The translations under genes and the position numbers were made by a program. The notes under the pieces are model-generated. The model was not told the DNA's origin. It searched no databases and worked only from the letters and a program-made list of their open reading frames with translations. Source: an uncultured Poribacteria bacterium (lineage in GTDB: Bacteria; Poribacteria; WGA-4E; WGA-3G). From it: DNA of 64,000 nucleotides. The stretch spans positions 480,001 to 544,000 of the forward strand of contig OX638351.1 in NCBI GenBank assembly GCA_951813565.1, written 5' to 3'. Position 1 is the stretch's first letter. Every line of letters begins with the position of its first letter. Shown here in pieces: positions 48,287-61,218 of the stretch.

Positions 48287-48350
48287 CATAATAGCACAAA
48301 CAGAAAATCAGAGAATTAAATTTCATTGCTGAAAAATAAGGAGTTACCTT

Positions 48351-48601
48351 ATGCCAAAACCGAGTGCCTCCTCAAAAAAAATATATCGAAATTCACAAAA
48401 CCTGATATGTCTGACCAGGACAACACATTAGCAGATACTGATGCGCCACTTCCCAAAAAAGAGGGAGGACCTGTCCCAGCACCAAAATATACGCTTGAAC
48501 AACTTCTTGCAAACATACCAGAACCAGATCTTAAAGTGCTGAAGTCTAATTCTTCCGAAGAAGTGAATACAGGAAAACCGATAGGCAAGGAGGCATGGTA
48601 A
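48351..48601 (+). CDS. MazE-like antitoxin; RBS-linked ATG 48351 needs a -1 shift at A8 (48374-48381); alternative in-frame ATG 48407
   Basis: C-terminus YTLEQLLANI...EEVNTGKPIGKEAW is MazE-like; sits directly upstream of mazF. Confidence 0.7.
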
Positions 48602-48608
48602 ATTCGCC

Positions 48609-49046
48609 ATGTATATTCCACGACGTGGTGATATAGTGTGGATTAACTTTGATCCTCAAGCGGGACATGAACAAGCAAATGTGCGTCCTGCTCTTGTGCT
48701 TTCAGATGAACAGTATAATCGTAGGTTACGTCTTGCAATAATGTGTCCAATTACGACCCGCCGTGCTTCCTATCGAAGATATCTTGATGTCTCTATCCCT
48801 CCAGAAGTAACAATTCAAAACAAAGACTCTACAGGTTTAATCAAACTCACTGGCGTAATTCAGGCTGATCATATCAAAAGTCTTGATTGGTTAGAAAGAG
48901 ATGCAAAGTACGCGGGTGATATGCCCAATGATGCAGTAAATCAGGTTCTGCAAATAGTTGGAACACTCGTTAAAAATTTGGGATGTACAATAATTCAATT
49001 GCCTATGGCTGTTGAAAAGGCGTTGTTGTCCACCTTACGAGCATAG
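48609..49046 (+). CDS. mazF: MazF/PemK endoribonuclease toxin
   Basis: YIPRRGDIVWINFDPQAGHEQA..RPALVLS, CPITT, DHIKSLDW. Confidence 0.93.
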   Translation: MYIPRRGDIVWINFDPQAGHEQANVRPALVLSDEQYNRRLRLAIMCPITTRRASYRRYLDVSIPPEVTIQNKDSTGLIKLTGVIQADHIKSLDWLERDAKYAGDMPNDAVNQVLQIVGTLVKNLGCTIIQLPMAVEKALLSTLRA

Positions 49047-49086
49047 AAACTACATATCCGTATACATTTTCTAAGGAGATAGCGAT

Positions 49087-49554
49087 ATGTCTCAATCCAC
49101 AGACACCCATCGCACAGCGAAAGACCTATCACCTGAAGAATTAGCAGAATACAGCCGCCGCCTTGACGAGCATTTCCGAAATCGAAAGGTAGATGAGGAA
49201 TTGCTGCAACGCGCATGGCACACCGCGCATCGGATTGCAGCAGTGCTCTATGAAGACTTCGGGGCAACACAAGTCGCAGTATTCGGGTCGCTTACCGAAC
49301 AGGATTCGTTTTCAAAATGGTCGGATATAGATATTGCTGTCTGGGGAATTTCAGATGACGAGTATTTTCTGGCAGTATCAAAAGCAATGGATATTAGTGG
49401 ATTATTCAAAGTTGATTTGGTCGATTTTGAAAGTTCTAAAGGACTGTTTCGTGAAAGGATTCAGAGTCAATTAATTACTATCGAAAAAGGATTCACCTAC
49501 AAAGTGGACAGAAACGTGCTGATTCAGCGTATTTCTGATGAACGAAAAAAATAG
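49087..49554 (+). CDS. Minimal nucleotidyltransferase (MNT) antitoxin, 5' part of an apparent MNT-HEPN fusion
   Basis: VFGSL..FSKWSDIDIAVWG, VDLVD. Confidence 0.88.
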   Translation: MSQSTDTHRTAKDLSPEELAEYSRRLDEHFRNRKVDEELLQRAWHTAHRIAAVLYEDFGATQVAVFGSLTEQDSFSKWSDIDIAVWGISDDEYFLAVSKAMDISGLFKVDLVDFESSKGLFRERIQSQLITIEKGFTYKVDRNVLIQRISDERKK

Positions 49555-49982
49555 AGGAAACTGTAGGAAAAATTGCAGAAAGATTAGAAAAGATTAAGAC
49601 CGCCCCCGTTGAGTATAGAGAAGAGATAGAAACGACAATTGCCAAAAATCTTGTTGATTGTTATCGGGGTATGGAGAATATCTTTAGACGAATTGCGCTT
49701 GATGTTGACTTACGCATGCCCGATGGAAGTAGGTGGCATAAAGAATTGCTTGCACAGATGGTAGCATCACAGGTTGAACGACAACCAGTGATTTCTCAAG
49801 AGACGTTTGAACTGCTGCAGGAGCTTTTGGAATTTCGCCACGTTTTCAATAATATTTATGGAGAAGAACTGGTTTACGCAAGAATAGAAAAAAATGCTAA
49901 GCAAATTGGTGAGTTGTTTTATGTCCTCTCCAAAGAACTGGATGTCTTGATTGCTTTTTTAAATACACAAGAAAATGACTGA
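49551..49982 (+). CDS. HEPN (HepT-like) domain in the -1 frame after the A7 tract; first in-frame ATG 49671
   Basis: Frame open from IEETVGKI.. through YRGMENIFRRIA, WHKELLAQM, FRHVFNNIY. Confidence 0.8.
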   Translation: MEETVGKIAERLEKIKTAPVEYREEIETTIAKNLVDCYRGMENIFRRIALDVDLRMPDGSRWHKELLAQMVASQVERQPVISQETFELLQELLEFRHVFNNIYGEELVYARIEKNAKQIGELFYVLSKELDVLIAFLNTQEND

Positions 49983-53833: not shown

Positions 53834-53890
53834 TAAAGAGGCGTCTGTTAAACCTAATCCATAAGCTAAAATGACACCTACTCGCGTCAA

Positions 53891-55420
53891 TCAAAATTCA
53901 ACCAGTAGCTGTGGGATAATTGCCGCACTTCGCGTAGGTTTTTCAACGTTATTTACTTGATACACAAGTCGCGCTAAAGCACCTTCCGTGAAATGCCAGG
54001 TCAACGCACCACCCAGTGTTGACCAAACCTGTTCATCAGGTTCTTGGTTAAATGCAAACGTGCTAAATTTCTCCATATTCGGATTCCATACATCATACTT
54101 CAACCGAACATCTAAAGTTTCTGTCAAAGGTAACTCAGCGTGGAGATAATATCCTTCCACCGTTGCGTTGCGATCTTCCGATGGAATTGGAATGTATAGA
54201 TATTTCAAGAGTTGTGTATCTTGTCCACGAACCCATTCTGCGGCAAGATCAAATCGCCACAACTTGAAACTTGTCGCCAGACCGACACGGCGTTTATAGA
54301 GCAACGTTGACGGGTTAACATCACCGTTTATAGGATTAAACGGATAACTATTGCCATCAAAATAGGATGCACCAAGCCAAATCCGCTTTCCAAAAACAGG
54401 AAGAGTGCCATTCACATGAACAAACAACGGCGGACTGTTATTTCGGATCGGTTTAAGAACACCGCCCCCACTCCCGTGCGGGCCGATTCGGATGCCTGTT
54501 CCCACCGTTCCCTCCGTGACAGTGCGGAGTGAATCTGGACCATCCGCAAGCGATAGCACATACGAGACGGGACCTACGAAACCGTTTAGTTGAAATCCGC
54601 GGTCAGAAATAAAACCGATGTTCTTTCGAACCAGATTATATAGAGGATTCGCCGCAGCGTCAGACTTCGTATCAATACCGAAACCGTGTCGAAACCGACC
54701 GATTTTCATAGACGCACCCTTTGGTAAAACGGGTAATCCTGTCAGGATAGCGTAAACAAATCCGTGGTCGTCTGCAACCTGTGTTCCTAACGGAGAAGTC
54801 GTCAGTAGCTGCTCACCTAATATGCTAACATGATCGCCGACATTCGTTGTTACCACAAATTCAGCAACGTGAATAAGCGTAGTACCACTGTTCCAATTGT
54901 CTCTATCAGGTATCAAATCCTGTCCGCGAGTTGGACGGCGGATATCCAATGCGCCGCCGAATATAAGGTCTCCAAACACACCACCGAGAAAATCAGAGCT
55001 ACCAGTATCCTCGGTTGCATCAGCGTCATCAAAACTAAAAACGTCTCCGTCATCAATATCTAACGCTTCATCCGATGCAGAGAGAACGTTTGAAGGTTCA
55101 ACATTTTCAGGTGTACTGGCAGCATCACCTGGGTAGGAACGGGCAAGAAGTTCAGCGATATTGCTAAATCCATCTTTATCTGAATCCGTCTCTTCAATAC
55201 GAAGGAAAGTTGACTGATTCATACCGTTGTGTAGGAATGCTCTGCCGTAGGGATTAGGCGAATCCCCACCCTTCTTTGAAAAATGGCATACGTTACAACC
55301 GCCTGTCCATTTATATTTAGCCTTGAACATTTTATAAAACGCTGGCAGAGCAAATACTGACTGCCCTGCGATCATAGCCCAAAAGAGAGCCATCGCGCAG
55401 AAGAGCAAAATTTTGCGCAT
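53891..55420 (-). CDS. Monoheme cytochrome c fused to an outer-membrane beta-barrel (Cyc2-like architecture)
   Basis: Signal peptide; LPAF...CNVCH (55297-55283)...NPYGRAFLHNG; DSDKDGFSNIAE loop; acidic linker; porin-like strands (KIGRFRHGFG, GYYLHAEL, RLKYD) and terminal Phe. Confidence 0.7.
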   Translation of the reverse strand: MRKILLFCAMALFWAMIAGQSVFALPAFYKMFKAKYKWTGGCNVCHFSKKGGDSPNPYGRAFLHNGMNQSTFLRIEETDSDKDGFSNIAELLARSYPGDAASTPENVEPSNVLSASDEALDIDDGDVFSFDDADATEDTGSSDFLGGVFGDLIFGGALDIRRPTRGQDLIPDRDNWNSGTTLIHVAEFVVTTNVGDHVSILGEQLLTTSPLGTQVADDHGFVYAILTGLPVLPKGASMKIGRFRHGFGIDTKSDAAANPLYNLVRKNIGFISDRGFQLNGFVGPVSYVLSLADGPDSLRTVTEGTVGTGIRIGPHGSGGGVLKPIRNNSPPLFVHVNGTLPVFGKRIWLGASYFDGNSYPFNPINGDVNPSTLLYKRRVGLATSFKLWRFDLAAEWVRGQDTQLLKYLYIPIPSEDRNATVEGYYLHAELPLTETLDVRLKYDVWNPNMEKFSTFAFNQEPDEQVWSTLGGALTWHFTEGALARLVYQVNNVEKPTRSAAIIPQLLVEF

Positions 55421-55480
55421 GATAAATTCCTTTTAATGAATGTAGAGCGAACTTGGAATCCGCCCTATGAGGTATAAGGT

Positions 55481-56458
55481 TTAATACGCCTCAAGGTCAA
55501 TCTCTTCTTCGCTAAACCGGATGTGCGCTTGTTTTATTAACGCTTCTATTTCATCCCACTGCTTACGCGTCTCGTCAGAAATTCCTTTTTCATTAAGTGC
55601 TTTAGCAAATTCAGTGAGCGTTTTGCTAAACTTATCTTGCATCTCGACGTACTCTTCCTTCTGATCAGCATTTTTCGGCGGTTCAAAATCGGAAATACCT
55701 TTGGCGTATAAAGCAAGTTTTTTAGCAGCGGCTACCGCTTCTGCTTTTCCCTCGCCTTTGTCAAAGTAGTCAAAGATTTCAAAATAGGCATCCACCATTA
55801 AAATCATGAGTTCCTTCAAGTCCTCAACTTCAGGCATCTCCTCAGGTGATTCTTCCGGTGGTGGTGTCTTTTCCGCATCCGATTTTGGCTTGCGTTTTAG
55901 AAATAGCGCATAGCTCATGACCAGTGTTTTTTTCGGGATCAAAGCGACAGCTTTTGATGCCTCTTCATGCCCTTTAACGGCTTCAATATCCTTACCGACC
56001 TTGAAAGCATCGTCTATTCCCTTGCCAACAAATTGCTTGAGAAATTTCGCTGATGCAATCGCATCCGATTCCTTGTGTTCATAGACCGCTACTTTCACGA
56101 TCTTTCCCTTCATGTTAAGTCCAACGGCACCGTCAATAGTACCACGCGGGCCTTTCACATCAACGAACAGTACCAAACCGATCGGTTTCTTTTGATCACT
56201 AATCGGAATATAGAAGATCGGTTTTTGGTCTTCTTGCCGAAGTTTAGCCCCTAATTCTTTCTCAATAGATGCGATTTTGTCTGGCTTGAGTATAACAGTT
56301 CGTTGAACAAATTTTTTCGCTTTTGGGAAGATAGCAGCGAGTTTCTCACCTGGCCACTCCGTTTCATGCGCGTCACTGAGTAGTGGGGTAATTACCATCA
56401 AGGAAACTAACATAAGCAGCATGCCCGTATGAGACGGACGGTATATTTGGGAATTCAT
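55481..56458 (-). CDS. Secreted FMN-bind-like domain plus C-terminal helical bundle
   Basis: VGLNMKGKIVKVAVYEHKE..FLKQFVGK..DIEAV fits the FMN_bind fold; C-terminal helices LKELMILM...IKQAHIRF. Confidence 0.65.
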   Translation of the reverse strand: MNSQIYRPSHTGMLLMLVSLMVITPLLSDAHETEWPGEKLAAIFPKAKKFVQRTVILKPDKIASIEKELGAKLRQEDQKPIFYIPISDQKKPIGLVLFVDVKGPRGTIDGAVGLNMKGKIVKVAVYEHKESDAIASAKFLKQFVGKGIDDAFKVGKDIEAVKGHEEASKAVALIPKKTLVMSYALFLKRKPKSDAEKTPPPEESPEEMPEVEDLKELMILMVDAYFEIFDYFDKGEGKAEAVAAAKKLALYAKGISDFEPPKNADQKEEYVEMQDKFSKTLTEFAKALNEKGISDETRKQWDEIEALIKQAHIRFSEEEIDLEAY

Positions 56459-56474
56459 CTTTTTCTCCTTATTT

Positions 56475-56510
56475 TGGAATTATAGGGTGGGTGCCCACCC
56501 TATAATTCCA
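56475..56510. promoter_or_regulatory. Perfect 17-bp-arm intergenic palindrome
   Basis: tggaattatagggtggg-tg-cccaccctataattcca. Confidence 0.7.
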
Positions 56511-56516
56511 CGTGAT

Positions 56517-57533
56517 TTAGTCTGACTCCTCAACTTTGACCATGAAAGTAGGAAACAGAATTTGATCGGTGTGCTTAAGCTGACCGAAAATCTGATAGAC
56601 TCCAGCTTTCGGAAATGTAGTCATGAGCATTACAGCTGGGCCGAATTTCTCTGGCGTTGTACCTTGATGCTGATGTCCGGTTGCAGGAGGCTTTTTCATT
56701 TTATGTCCGGCATGCGGATCTTTCTTCATCATCTTGTCTGTCCGTTCATTCATAGGAACTGTACCATGCGTATGCAGTATACCATCTAAACGGGTACTTA
56801 CGATAGCAAAATGCATTGGTGCATCTAAAAATGGAACGAGATCAGTAATCGGTTTTCCATCGCGCGAAAAATGATAGGTGATATGAACCATCTCACCTGC
56901 CTTGATTTGTTCTGGCACTTTTATTTTTACGTGATATTTGGATGTCCCTTTACCATCAATGATAGAAACAGCTTTTGTAAACCGATCTCCGCCCTCTTCT
57001 GTATAACCAAAAACAACTTTTTCCCGCTGAAAATCATCAGAAATATCTGCCATTTTCTTATCACCTTCAACATCTACATACAGATATTTCGCGAATTCGG
57101 CATCTGCAGTCATCACATCAAGTGCAAGAATATATCTACCAGCAACAGGGAAAGTAAAGTGCACTGTATAAGTGCCTTCAAGTTCCGCCATCATGTCCCG
57201 TGACTCAAAATCTTCGGGATGAATATGTCCGATGATCTGTAGGTTCTCACCGACTATTAGCACATGCAGAATCCGGTCATGATGTATCATAAGGTCTGTA
57301 AAAGGTTCTCCCTTCGCATCAGTAAGATGAAACATCAGGGCTGCAGATACACCAGCCTGAATCTTTTGCGGCTCAGTGTGAAGCTTAACATTTAAGTCAG
57401 CAGTTTTATCTGCCTTATGTGTGCTGTGCTTCTCATGTTGCTCGGTAAAACCGAAGTCTACAAAAAACAGTGTAGTTACAACTATTGCTATAGCAAAACG
57501 AAAAATGAAAAACGTGGAAATTCGGGATAGCAT
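56517..57533 (-). CDS. His/Met-rich secreted putative heavy-metal-binding protein with two Ig/YtkA-like domains
   Basis: HHDRILHV..GHIHP, PFLDAPMHF..LHTHG, HAGHKM, HQHQ, FP.AG.Y twice; ATG 57533 after GGAGG. Confidence 0.7.
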   Translation of the reverse strand: MLSRISTFFIFRFAIAIVVTTLFFVDFGFTEQHEKHSTHKADKTADLNVKLHTEPQKIQAGVSAALMFHLTDAKGEPFTDLMIHHDRILHVLIVGENLQIIGHIHPEDFESRDMMAELEGTYTVHFTFPVAGRYILALDVMTADAEFAKYLYVDVEGDKKMADISDDFQREKVVFGYTEEGGDRFTKAVSIIDGKGTSKYHVKIKVPEQIKAGEMVHITYHFSRDGKPITDLVPFLDAPMHFAIVSTRLDGILHTHGTVPMNERTDKMMKKDPHAGHKMKKPPATGHQHQGTTPEKFGPAVMLMTTFPKAGVYQIFGQLKHTDQILFPTFMVKVEESD

Positions 57534-57652
57534 TTTAATTCCTCCATACATTTAACCCGTAAATTAAGTATAAATTCAAATAGATCAATTTCCCGTTGCC
57601 TCACACAAAGGTAGGGAAAGGAAATCGTTCAAATTATTTGTAAAAGTTACTT

Positions 57653-58087
57653 TTAAGAAGGGGTGTACGGAGGGCCGCGACGGGATATGTCGCTATTTAA
57701 AAGAGAGGTAAATAGCTTAGATGGGGATGGGAGATGAAGCAATATCTCCTGATCAGTAGGTAAAGTCGCAGAGAACGGAACAATAGAAACGATTTGGTGT
57801 GTTAACGATTCACGGATAACGTCTCCATTATGTGAATCGCTGGGGAGAATAAGTTCTAAGCTATTTAAACAGCAAGCAGTCTCACTTTCTGATGGTGTTT
57901 CAGATTCACTTGCGGCATCTGTTTTATGGCAACAGGACGAACTTGTTTCAGCATATTCCATCTGTATTTTTTCAGATAAGCCACTACACAAGATTTGTCC
58001 AAAAGCCGCACAGAATAGTGGGCATACAGAATAAACGCAGACCAATACTGCAAGTAAGATGGGAAATTGCCAATGTTTTCGCAACAT
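57653..58087 (-). CDS. Cys-rich DUF2946/CutF/CruR-like leader ORF with C-terminal RGPP motif
   Basis: ATG 58087 after GGAG; hydrophobic N-terminus with CPLFC, two CC pairs, Pro-rich tail ending RRGPPYTPS. Confidence 0.75.
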   Translation of the reverse strand: MLRKHWQFPILLAVLVCVYSVCPLFCAAFGQILCSGLSEKIQMEYAETSSSCCHKTDAASESETPSESETACCLNSLELILPSDSHNGDVIRESLTHQIVSIVPFSATLPTDQEILLHLPSPSKLFTSLLNSDISRRGPPYTPS

Positions 58088-58144: not shown

Positions 58145-58174
58145 ATTATACACCAAAATTCAAAAAAGTTGCAA
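58145..58174 (-). promoter_or_regulatory. Sigma70-type promoter of the RGPP-leader operon
   Basis: TTGCAA-18 bp-TATAAT on minus strand. Confidence 0.6.
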
Positions 58175-58852: not shown

Positions 58853-59812
58853 ATGGCAAATATAAAAATCCCCAAGGGATGGGAAATCCCAGAAAATCAA
58901 GTAACTCCTGAATCAGCCTATATTAACCGTAGAAAGTTTATCAAAGACCTCGGCATTGCAGGTGCTGGCGCGTTGTCGCTTTTCGGCACAAGTGCTTGTG
59001 CGCAAGAAAGCAAGGTTGCGAAACAACTTGAACCCTATCGCATGCAGACTCTTGAGGCTAAAAAGAACAAAGAATTCACTGTTAAACGGGAACAAACTGA
59101 TGAAATTGTCGCAGCAACTTACAACAACTTCTATGAGTTTACCAGTTCAAAAAGCACTGTTTGGAAACGGGTTGAAAGGTTTAAAACGCGTCCGTGGGAG
59201 ATTGAAATATCCGGGCTCGTTGAAAAACCGATGACCTTAGATGTAGATGACCTAATTAAACAGATGCCCCTTGAAGAACGTATCTATCGTTTTCGTTGTG
59301 TTGAAACTTGGGCAATGGTTGTTCCCTGGATCGGTTTCCCAATGAAAGCGTTGCTTGAAAAAGTTCAACCAAAGTCTGAAGCGAAATACGTAAAGATGGT
59401 CACATTTATGGATCCTGACGTTGCACCGCATCAAAACAATTTTGGTTTGCCGTGGCCTTATGTTGAAGGGTTAACACTCGCGGAAGCCATGAACGACCTA
59501 ACGTTAATGGTTGTCGGTGTCTATGGACATATCTTACCGCCACAGCACGGAGCACCCATTCGGTTGATTGCGCCATGGAAATACGGGTTTAAAAGTATCA
59601 AATCTATTGTTAGCATTGAACTAACCGACAAGAAACCTCGAACCTTTTGGAACGTCATACTTCCGAGAGAATACGGCTTTGAAGCAAACGTTAATCCGAA
59701 CGTTCCGCATCCGCGTTGGTCGCAAGCCACTGAATGGATGATTGGCTCAATGGAGAGACATCCAACAGTGATATACAACGGTTACGGCGAATCTGTGGCG
59801 CATCTTTACTAA
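58853..59812 (+). CDS. msrP: Protein-methionine-sulfoxide reductase catalytic subunit MsrP
   Basis: Tat motif [45 protein letters not shown]. Confidence 0.95.
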
Positions 59813-59843
59813 AGGCAACTTCCAAGTCGCAAATTACAAATGA

Positions 59844-59943
59844 TGGTAGATTTTAGGATTACTTGGACATCTTGCACCAGCGAGGTTAGGAAACCTCGCC
59901 TACCGGGGACAAAAGTGTCCATTACTTTTTATGATTCATCATA
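59844..59943. repeat. MITE-like IR element with REP core
   Basis: ggtagattttaggattacttggacat...gtgtccattac with core gcgaggttaggaaacctcgcctacc; related to about 7294-7352 and 8731. Confidence 0.6.
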
Positions 59944-59958
59944 AGATGGAGAAAGCAA

Positions 59959-61218
59959 ATGAATAGCAAACAAACATTCAGAAAAACCGCGTTGGGTTCA
60001 ATGCTTCTCGTTTTTCTGTTATTTATTGGGTGTTTTGAGTCTGTTATTGACACACTAAACCAAGAGAAAGACGAATCTATTGTTGCTCCAGTTGATTCAG
60101 GCGTTCCCATGGCGAACACCAAATTCGGCTTTAATCTGTTTAATGCGATCTGGGAAACTGAACAGAATCAGAATATCTTTATCTCACCGTTCAGCGTTTC
60201 TACTGCCTTAACGATGACGTTAAACGGCGCAGCTGGTGAAACAGAACAGGCAATGGTTGACACGCTTCAACTACAAGGTATAGACTCCGATTCCATCAAT
60301 TCCAGTTACGCTCAATTGCAACAGACACTTCAAACAGCGGACTCGAAAGTGACACTTACAATTGCAAACTCGCTTTGGGGCAACGAAGGGTTCTCATTCA
60401 AATCTGATTTTCTGCAGCGCAACACTCAATTTTTCAAAGCTGAAATCTCAATACTTGATTTTTTGGACCCAAATTCTCTAACAAGAATTAATCAGTGGGT
60501 AAATGACAATACAAATGGCAAAATCCCAAAAATTCTTGATGAAATAGACGCGAATGCGGTGTTATTCCTAATTAATGCGATCTATTTCAAGGGTGCATGG
60601 CAAACAGAATTCGACCCTATGCATACGCGCGATGGGACGTTTCATCTCATAAACGGGAGCACAAAGCAGGTGCCGATGATGTTTAGATCAGGGCGTTATT
60701 CCCATTACCGTGGAGATGCTTTCCAAGCCGTTAACCTCCCTTATGGCGATGGGCGGATAAGTATGTATATTTTTCTTCCCGCCCGCGATTCCAACCTGAA
60801 TACCTTTTTAGAAACTTTAACCCCGGAGAATTGGGAAAATTGGATATCACAGTTCCGCGAACAGGAACTGTCCCTCAGAATCCCTAAATTCAAACTGGAA
60901 TATGGAACAAAAGAACTTAATGACGCGCTTACAGCACACGGTATGGGTATAGCATTTGATGCAAATCGGGCGGATTTTAGCCGGATGGTGTCTTTAGAAG
61001 ATTTAGGGGCAAATCTATATATTGATAAAGTTTCCCATAAAACTTTTATTGAAGTTAATGAAGAAGGTACAGAAGCTGCTGCTGTAACTGTTGTTGGGAT
61101 CGTAAAAACCAGTCTGCCACCAGAATTCACTGCTGATCGACCATTTTTCTTTGCAATTCGTGATAACCAAACAGGAACGGTGCTATTTATAGGTACTGTT
61201 GTAGACCCTCAGCCATAA
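59959..61218 (+). CDS. Serpin family lipoprotein
   Basis: FIGC lipobox, NIFISPFSV, NAIYFKGAW, hinge EEGTEAAAVT, FTADRPFFFAIRD. Confidence 0.95.
   Translation: MNSKQTFRKTALGSMLLVFLLFIGCFESVIDTLNQEKDESIVAPVDSGVPMANTKFGFNLFNAIWETEQNQNIFISPFSVSTALTMTLNGAAGETEQAMVDTLQLQGIDSDSINSSYAQLQQTLQTADSKVTLTIANSLWGNEGFSFKSDFLQRNTQFFKAEISILDFLDPNSLTRINQWVNDNTNGKIPKILDEIDANAVLFLINAIYFKGAWQTEFDPMHTRDGTFHLINGSTKQVPMMFRSGRYSHYRGDAFQAVNLPYGDGRISMYIFLPARDSNLNTFLETLTPENWENWISQFREQELSLRIPKFKLEYGTKELNDALTAHGMGIAFDANRADFSRMVSLEDLGANLYIDKVSHKTFIEVNEEGTEAAAVTVVGIVKTSLPPEFTADRPFFFAIRDNQTGTVLFIGTVVDPQP

Follow-up and report, generated by a model that had tools for sequence, protein, structure and literature searches.

A leader-headed operon of uncultured Poribacteria that may encode a copper-linked redox relay of the cell envelope

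Within a 64,000-nucleotide window of an uncultured Poribacteria bacterium (assembly GCA_951813565.1, contig OX638351.1, positions 480,001 to 544,000; coordinates below are those of the window), we describe a four-gene operon that encodes, in order, a Cys-rich leader peptide, a His/Met-rich protein, a protein with an FMN_bind-like and a helical domain (P0003) and a cytochrome-porin (P0004). Our tentative reading, which we hold to be possible if short of probable, is that the operon specifies a copper-induced envelope relay in which quinol electrons, delivered through a Rieske/cytochrome b complex, would reduce Cu(II) at the haem-porin. The source genome is a single contig of 5.43 Mb, 95% complete, in which every gene of the operon is single-copy. 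The four genes are as follows.

57653..58087, minus strand: CutF-like leader peptide, 144 residues, with a hydrophobic N-terminus, CPxxC, two CC pairs and a C-terminal RGPP
56517..57533, minus strand: His/Met-rich periplasmic protein (gene 2), 338 residues, two YtkA/FixH-like halves (Pfam YtkA, E 1e-7)
55481..56458, minus strand: two-domain periplasmic carrier P0003 (gene 3), 325 residues; AlphaFold2 model with a mean predicted local distance difference test (pLDDT) of 79.8
53891..55420, minus strand: monohaem cytochrome c-porin fusion P0004 (gene 4), 509 residues

The open reading frames (ORFs) are separated by 119, 58 and 60 nt, and their products have export-like N-termini as judged by eye. 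An earlier note on this DNA had proposed four co-oriented genes behind one predicted promoter, and the ORF coordinates, the spacing and a promoter-like site bear this out. The gene-neighbourhood survey that it called for was run and finds the operon conserved: the cytochrome-porin is matched in 36/36 relatives of the genus, with gene order unbroken in 34 of them. The exceptions are G007, which has lost the leader, and G029, which lacks the leader and gene 2 at the operon locus and has a frameshifted porin. Among 151 genomes of the phylum, 55 carry a full-length gene 4, and in all 55 it is accompanied by gene 3 flanked by gene 2. By itself the promoter scan of the window is not above chance (10 promoter-like sites vs 13.4 in shuffles), but a TTG-type -35 with a TATAAT-type -10 precedes 34 of 50 homologous leaders, and we therefore call the promoter conserved.

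58145..58174, minus strand: predicted sigma-70-type promoter, TTGCAA-18 nt-TATAAT, 10/12 consensus matches
53872..53889, minus strand: terminator-like hairpin directly after the last stop codon, a consensus match only

The leader has eight Cys residues, ends in RRGPPYTPS and is the most divergent product of the operon (31-82% identity). RGPP is invariant in 35/35 genus leaders; in the wider set, CPxxC is present in 50/50 and two CC pairs in 49/50, and the last CC lies 61-65 residues from R[AG]PP in 49/49. No other Cys-rich ORF of 60-250 residues in the genome ends in R[AG]PP, two short ORFs ending in RSPP being the only further matches, and RGPP occurs in 0/2732 ORFs of at least 250 residues. 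The rule set for CutF-like leaders (PMC9973294) asks for fewer than 150 residues, a CxxxC and a PP within 15 residues of the C-terminus. The leader has all three, its RGPP standing four residues from the end and its CxxxC at the end of the hydrophobic segment, where it may lie within the signal peptide. DUF2946 proteins of the CruR type instead place CXXC 45 residues ahead of RAPP (PMC9426467); CXXC was found in 1/50 leaders, the window leader has no Pfam family at E <= 1 and no NCBIfam match, and a family-f3 leader has no Pfam match at 0.01. Of the earlier description of the leader, the arrest-type, CutF-like part thus stands, while DUF2946 membership was rejected on the missing Pfam match and the different spacing.

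RGPP gives the strongest arrest among RAPP-like motifs (PMC12992588, in which the 10 supplementary files searched make no mention of "Poribacteria"). The spacing of about 63 residues would put the Cys pair just past the ribosome tunnel and the SecY channel, which, by analogy, would fit periplasmic sensing as in CutF (10.1101/2025.02.05.636593). As the same leader family heads DUF3347, TolC-like and multicopper oxidase genes in seven family-f3 loci, this context points to copper as the signal that would trigger stalling. Candidate leaders for another metal were seen in two Bdellovibrionota loci (L111:12742-13167 and L124:14236-14658), as small His-rich ORFs with a terminal RPP that stand ahead of HupE/UreJ-type genes close to the porin module.

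How stalling might act is suggested by a predicted RNA stem between the arrest codons and the Shine-Dalgarno (SD) sequence of the next gene.

57664..57679, minus strand: RGPP codons (57668-57679) overlapping an anti-SD arm (57664-57673), predicted to pair with the SD of gene 2
57541..57550, minus strand: 3' arm of the stem, with the GGAGG SD of the His/Met gene

The two Pro codons of RGPP read CCUCC, the complement of the gene 2 GGAGG. The window segment folds with the stem closed (z = -2.99; 1/200 shuffles as stable), and the predicted probability that the SD is unpaired rises from 0.00 in free mRNA to 0.70 when the footprint of a ribosome stalled on RGPP is blocked; the gain is mostly smaller in homologues, often 0.2-0.5 and about 0.1 in family f3. 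Since stalling frees the SD in the predicted fold, it would turn gene 2 on. Codon choice is consistent with this: the first Pro codon is CCT in 47/51 leaders, against 28% of Pro codons genome-wide and 3/49 for a control Pro in the same leaders. For the comparison of stem pairs, 8/51 leaders without GGAGG at the expected distance were dropped, so that the SD side is conserved by construction, and duplicates were collapsed to 36. Of these 36 distinct pairs, all anchored, 35 keep the 5-bp core in full; pairing stands at 58-72% over the five positions that follow and at 3-6% beyond them. Compensatory swaps such as A-U/U-A and A-U/G-C are seen, largely at clade level and hence representing few independent events. 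At the computational level, the predicted stem supports the post-transcriptional, arrest-type control first proposed for the leader.

Gene 2, which this stem would gate, is here taken to start at an SD-backed ATG; the ORF caller had placed the start six codons earlier. Its content of 22 His and 16 Met (11.2%) ranks third among the 2732 genome ORFs of at least 250 residues, in agreement with the initial description of the second protein as His/Met-rich, and its product is likely a Cu(I) chaperone.

The proposed link to respiration comes from the C-terminal half of P0003.

55502..55831, minus strand: four-helix bundle resembling cytochrome b562/c', with Met218 and His312 but lacking CxxCH

The top fold matches of residues 210-319 are cytochromes c', c556 and b562 (Z 11.4-12.6; here and below by VIA-align, the sole source of fold evidence), and residues 211-316 of the model align with residues 1-106 of b562 (Z 11.9, root-mean-square deviation (rmsd) 2.1). 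Met218 and His312 fall in the register of b562 Met7/His102, as taken from the range ends and not from residue pairs. Both are invariant in 109 sequences and in the homologue set (Met 75/75, His 75/75). A C-terminal CxxCH is present in 0/75 of these homologues, and membership in cytochrome c'/class II c was rejected on this basis. The domain probably binds haem b through the Met/His pair.

Gene context provides evidence for this haem-domain reading that is independent of the fold match. A P0003-type gene lies directly upstream of Rieske and cytochrome b genes in 10/10 f2 and five f3 genomes (15 in all), and upstream of the Rieske gene alone in 6/6 g6 loci fetched; in four genomes (g10/g12) the b562-like domain is fused to the cytochrome b C-terminus. 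Across the 151 genomes of the phylum, the domain and this cytochrome b are found together in 129 and are both missing in 16; five have the domain alone and one the cytochrome b alone. These six mismatched genomes are all drafts of several contigs, and kin genomes are not independent. The genome studied here has an orthologous Rieske/cytochrome b pair (62% and 68%) at C1:1468312-1469981, not adjacent to the P0003 gene and without a neighbouring gene for a cytochrome c. A place beside, or fused to, the cytochrome b of such a complex is familiar for cytochrome f and for c-type cytochromes of class I; it is not known for b562. We infer that the helical domain is an acceptor subunit of the Rieske/cytochrome b complex, on its periplasmic side. 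A search for stand-alone b562-like domains returned, among 19 candidates, only five close relatives (62-72%), a result of low sensitivity that does not amount to absence. In genus g6 (L152-L157; L068, L071, L074, L089-L091), no Rieske gene was found near cytochrome b in the 5 kb fetched, and the Rieske gene stays behind the P0003 homologue, giving a split bc operon. At C1:331359-349459 the genome encodes a second complex of the Rieske/cytochrome b kind, this one with multihaem subunits, adjoining the only haem-copper oxidase subunit I found.

P0003 is matched in 136/151 phylum genomes. Its N-terminal half has a flavoprotein fold with no flavinylation motif.

55895..56368, minus strand: flavin-less RnfG/NqrC-fold domain, starting at His31 (predicted mature residue 1, hereafter His1)

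Residues 33-188 adopt the RnfG fold (Z 15.2), and the match to FMN_bind (PF04205) reaches 23.5 bits against a cut-off of 22. ApbE flavinylation needs an [S/T]GA[S/T] motif (PMC8238504); this motif is found in 0/75 P0003 homologues, with KGHE/KGQE at the position aligned to TGAT, and no ApbE (PF02424) match was obtained in the 95%-complete single-contig genome by a search that detected 8/14 controls. Flavin-based electron transfer by P0003 was rejected on these two grounds. The earlier naming of an FMN-bind-like/helical-bundle protein was therefore right as to both domains, and missed the loss of the flavinylation motif, the b562-like haem character of the bundle and its tie to a Rieske/cytochrome b complex, a likely source of electrons.

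His1 follows the porin. It is present in 43/44 Poribacteria loci with a porin, the exception being G029, where the porin is broken, and missing at that position in 25/27 loci without one. A His directly after AxA is also found in 16/16 stand-alone FMN-like homologues from other phyla. Cu(II) is commonly bound by a His at the N-terminus, and His1 may hold Cu. Family f2 homologues of P0003 (L076-L079, L092) look like lipoproteins, with a Cys after the hydrophobic stretch, which fits a membrane-anchored bc subunit, and in the G037 copy (L080) the two domains are separated by a further one of about 150 residues.

P0004, the last product of the operon, joins a haem domain to an outer-membrane barrel.

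55283..55297, minus strand: CNVCH haem-c motif in a temptin/GEGP-like N-terminal domain; C, C and H invariant
53894..54973, minus strand: OprP-like outer-membrane beta-barrel

The N-terminal domain has weak matches to Temptin_C and diheme_GEGP. The barrel aligns with OprP (2o4v; Z 25.0, rmsd 4.4, 318 residues aligned) and with Porin_O_P clusters of the Atlas at 0.96; the model has a pLDDT of 72, the haem domain and linker being less certain, and a PDB sequence search with the porin alignment gave nothing at E <= 10. A Cyc2-like protein had been suggested, and the architecture agrees in its single N-terminal CXXCH, OprP-like porin and length above 365 residues. The Cyc2 signature is AXPXFAR[Q/K][T/Y] five residues before CXXCH and PXL after it (10.1101/228056); in P0004 only the AXPXF part is matched, at longer spacing and with no PXL, and membership in Cyc2 was rejected. 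Elsewhere in the genome, C1:2937484-2938707 (L129) encodes a second probable cytochrome-porin with two CxxCH motifs and faint similarity to P0004.

The barrel family is small, with 25 representatives at E <= 1e-30 among 1.84 billion. We surveyed 27 distant loci from Bdellovibrionota, Myxococcota, Nitrospirota, Margulisbacteria and Omnitrophota and one Pseudomonadota record, in which the same parts recur reshuffled as a stand-alone barrel, a haem domain, a His1-type FMN-like protein and a membrane protein. The haem domain, in most cases as part of a fusion with a second FMN-like domain, is present in 23/27; a membrane protein bearing His is present in 20/27. Copper-type homeostasis genes (P1B ATPase, multicopper oxidase, CusA-type RND, CsoR, HMA, DUF305, DUF3347 and His/Met-type genes) occur in 19/27, and in 15/18 of the loci with at least 11 kb. 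P1B ATPases account for 12/27, multicopper oxidases for 8/27 and RND genes for 6/27, and CsoR is also present. In several loci that lack the leader, gene 3 comes after CusB/CusA-type genes. This copper-type context, in Poribacteria and in other phyla, supports the association with copper first proposed, whereas nothing found pointed to iron, the other metal then considered.

Several further arrangements were seen around the module. An outer-membrane barrel gene with an in-frame TGA in a CxxU/UxxU-like N-terminal motif lies within the operon at L061, L062, L066, L083 and L093, with two further copies in the present genome (C1:2495432-2496412 and 4586043-4586984), and its product is likely a selenoprotein. 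In a related cassette, a porin, an FMN-like protein, a small protein and an ABC permease follow a RAPP leader at L088 (G065) and an ArsR regulator at L137 (Massilia putida plasmid NZ_CP019036), the upstream gene of the plasmid cassette being annotated only as hypothetical.

With this context in hand, two readings without copper reduction can be placed. That P0004 is a Cyc2-type Fe(II) oxidase, or that the system serves another metal (Ni, Co or Ag), strikes us as the least likely of all: the monohaem plus OprP-like barrel invites it, and not all CutF-like leaders are Cu-specific (PMC9973294), yet the full Cyc2 motifs are absent and the gene context is of copper type in Poribacteria and other phyla alike. 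Acidithiobacillus has a chain of Cyc2, rusticyanin and cytochrome bc1. An operon resembling it would encode a Cu-containing respiratory wire to an outside donor or acceptor, built when the leader senses available Cu and with His1 loaded by the His/Met protein. CutF-like leaders do stand ahead of cuproenzyme genes such as nos (PMC9973294), but the neighbours in other phyla are for export and detoxification (the P1B ATPase, RND and CsoR genes above) and not respiratory, and one haem on the periplasmic side cannot span the outer membrane; we regard such a wire as very improbable.

A further question is the direction of electron flow. Oxidation of Cu(I) in the periplasm is the usual detoxification step. 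The porin haem could serve that end in place of a multicopper oxidase, with P0003 gathering electrons from porin and Rieske protein for a haem-copper oxidase, which the genome has; the architecture resembles Cyc2, an oxidase (10.1101/228056), and the peptide motif described below could mark electron donors to P0003. Against this, 8/27 distant loci already contain multicopper oxidases, and the membrane partner seems to have been replaced by a quinol-oxidising complex, which would be better as an electron source. We judge this reverse flow to be unlikely but worth serious consideration. Cu(II) reduction is favoured because the inner-membrane partner of the other phyla seems replaced by a quinol-oxidising complex with the same motif, and because the gene 2 product abounds in Met and His, residues able to bind Cu(I).

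The motif in question lies in the acidic linker of P0004.

55028..55042, minus strand: acidic-linker motif VFSFD, a candidate docking motif for the flavin-less domain

In 49/52 barrels the porin linker contains F-S-F or a sequence close to it (52 of 59 barrel rows could be parsed). An acidic F-D-F stretch, often in tandem, ends 31/32 unfused cytochrome b tails and is missing from the linker of the four fusions with the b562-like domain, and a looser form stands at the N-terminus of the membrane protein in 21/21. By chance, F[DS]F would be expected in 1-2% of windows and the loose forms in 7-17%. A strict pattern, formulated post hoc, occurs in 4/6073 genome ORFs, two of which are the cytochrome b tail and the porin linker. 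When the FMN-like domain was folded with the porin linker, the score was 0.32 compared with 0.02 for the best control, which is weak support; at least 53% of contacts agree between runs, and the partner has a pLDDT of 44. The mark used is reached by 116/157 solved and 2/215 mismatched pairs, with 18 of the solved pairs and both mismatches at 0.60 or under. The prediction hints that the FMN-like domain may dock on the acidic linker of the porin.

These data also bear on whether there is a relay at all. P0003 could serve the Rieske/cytochrome b complex as a housekeeping acceptor, its gene merely lying between those of a copper pore and a chaperone that are under leader control, handle Cu and exchange no electrons with the respiratory chain. 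P0003 and cytochrome b are indeed near-universal in families f1-f3, while genes 2 and 4 are confined to 55/151 phylum genomes, and the copper genes upstream differ between genera. Yet the proteins that regularly adjoin the porin in other phyla are homologues of the FMN-like domain (37% for the His1 type), loss of the porin goes with loss of His1, and a rare motif is common to the porin linker and the cytochrome b tail. On this evidence we consider an operon without a relay unlikely, though it deserves to be taken seriously.

The relay that we prefer would run in four steps. In the first, the Cys pairs of the leader would bind Cu while leaving SecY and the ribosome would pause on RGPP, the pause melting the CCUCC:GGAGG stem and turning on the His/Met gene. 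In the second, the b562-like Met/His domain of P0003, presumably with haem, would act as acceptor of the Rieske/cytochrome b pair encoded elsewhere in the genome, as its fusion or adjacency to these proteins in relatives suggests. In the third, the flavin-less FMN_bind domain may serve as docking hub for the acidic F-x-F peptide that the tail of cytochrome b and the linker of the porin each carry, while the N-terminal His of P0003 would hold Cu. In the fourth, electrons would pass from quinol to the Rieske protein, to the b562-like haem and on to the porin haem c or the His1-bound Cu, and the Cu(I) made from Cu(II) would be captured by the His/Met protein for export or delivery. In its boldest form, this proposal has a flavin fold repurposed as a Cu-binding docking hub, with F-x-F peptides plugging it alternately into a Rieske/cytochrome b complex with a non-covalent b562-type haem acceptor and into the haem-porin, the whole forming a respiratory trans-periplasmic copper reductase with reshuffled versions in Bdellovibrionota, Myxococcota, Nitrospirota and Margulisbacteria; stated so fully, we find it doubtful.

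A number of points weigh against the relay. The docking motif was defined after the sequences had been seen, and a similar [IV]-[DE]-[LF]-[DE] lies at the C-terminus of 67/75 P0003 proteins and is kept in the fusions too. The docking pass belongs to a weak class, more often wrong than right unless binding is likely beforehand. Values of Z 11-13 are also reached by unrelated helical bundles. About 80 genomes keep P0003 while lacking genes 2 and 4, so that its main function does not depend on the porin. Only gene 2 is under direct control of the predicted stem, and gene 3 has an SD-like sequence of its own. The His-bearing membrane partner of the other phyla was not found in this genome, 8/27 distant loci show no copper gene within the DNA fetched, and electrons may flow in a direction other than the one we propose.

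Around the operon, a divergent MsrP gene is followed by a serpin gene in place of an MsrQ-like gene (window 58853-61218), the serpin being duplicated in several relatives. These genes flank the operon only in a subset of genus loci; a functional tie was rejected and the arrangement treated as synteny. On the other side, window 48326-49982 holds what, from the translations, we take to be a MazE/MazF-type pair and a nucleotidyltransferase/HEPN-type pair.

In the open-licence literature we found no description of this operon or of a b562-type acceptor of a bc complex, in line with the earlier note's remark that the gene combination seems undescribed; lists of CutF-like proteins in the supplements of PMC9973294 may contain these leaders. 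If the proposal is true, it would bring a b562-type acceptor for a Rieske/cytochrome b complex, which we did not find in print, an undescribed module of porin, haem and flavin-less domain in copper islands of several phyla, and a leader of compact design whose arrest codons also serve as the anti-SD. It would also offer a testable answer to how Gram-negative cells set the redox state of periplasmic copper. Poribacteria are uncultured, yet each part can be tested in Escherichia coli as single domains.

Set against known systems, the leader resembles CutF of Rhodobacter capsulatus and CruR of Bordetella pertussis in being a small, putatively exported, Cys-containing upstream ORF with a C-terminal RAPP-like motif, ahead of copper genes (PMC9973294, PMC9426467), and cutF-cutO in the stem predicted to shield the next SD (PMC9973294, PMC9426467, 10.1101/2025.02.05.636593). 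It differs from them in having no Pfam match, in its CPxxC and two CC pairs instead of CXXC, in a spacing of about 63 instead of 45, and in an anti-SD that lies within the arrest codons and pairs across the 119-nt intergenic region. P0003 shares its fold and its above-threshold FMN_bind match with the ApbE-flavinylated proteins RnfG, NqrC and NosR, from which it is set apart by the missing flavin motif (75/75), the lack of a detected ApbE, the N-terminal His and the fused haem-type bundle. P0004 is like Cyc2 in combining one N-terminal CxxCH with an OprP-like barrel in more than 365 residues; it departs from Cyc2 in lacking the AXPXFAR[Q/K][T/Y]-5 residues-CXXCH and PXL motifs, in an acidic linker of about 45 residues and in a copper instead of iron context, and in most of its distant relatives the haem domain belongs to a separate protein that is FMN_bind-like.

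The helical domain is a four-helix bundle like those of cytochrome b562 and the class II cytochromes c' and c556, with Met and His in the b562 register. Unlike class II c, it lacks CxxCH, and unlike b562, it is encoded next to, or as a fusion with, cytochrome b where the latter belongs to a Rieske/cytochrome b complex. Among b6f-like complexes of this kind, some are known to have a cytochrome fused behind subunit IV, for example Bacillus QcrC. The g10/g12 fusions are similar in having a fused b6/subunit IV, a C-terminal periplasmic redox domain and a Rieske protein, whereas the domain appended in Poribacteria is a predicted non-covalent Met/His bundle that most genomes encode as a protein of its own, which a short peptide motif may tether.

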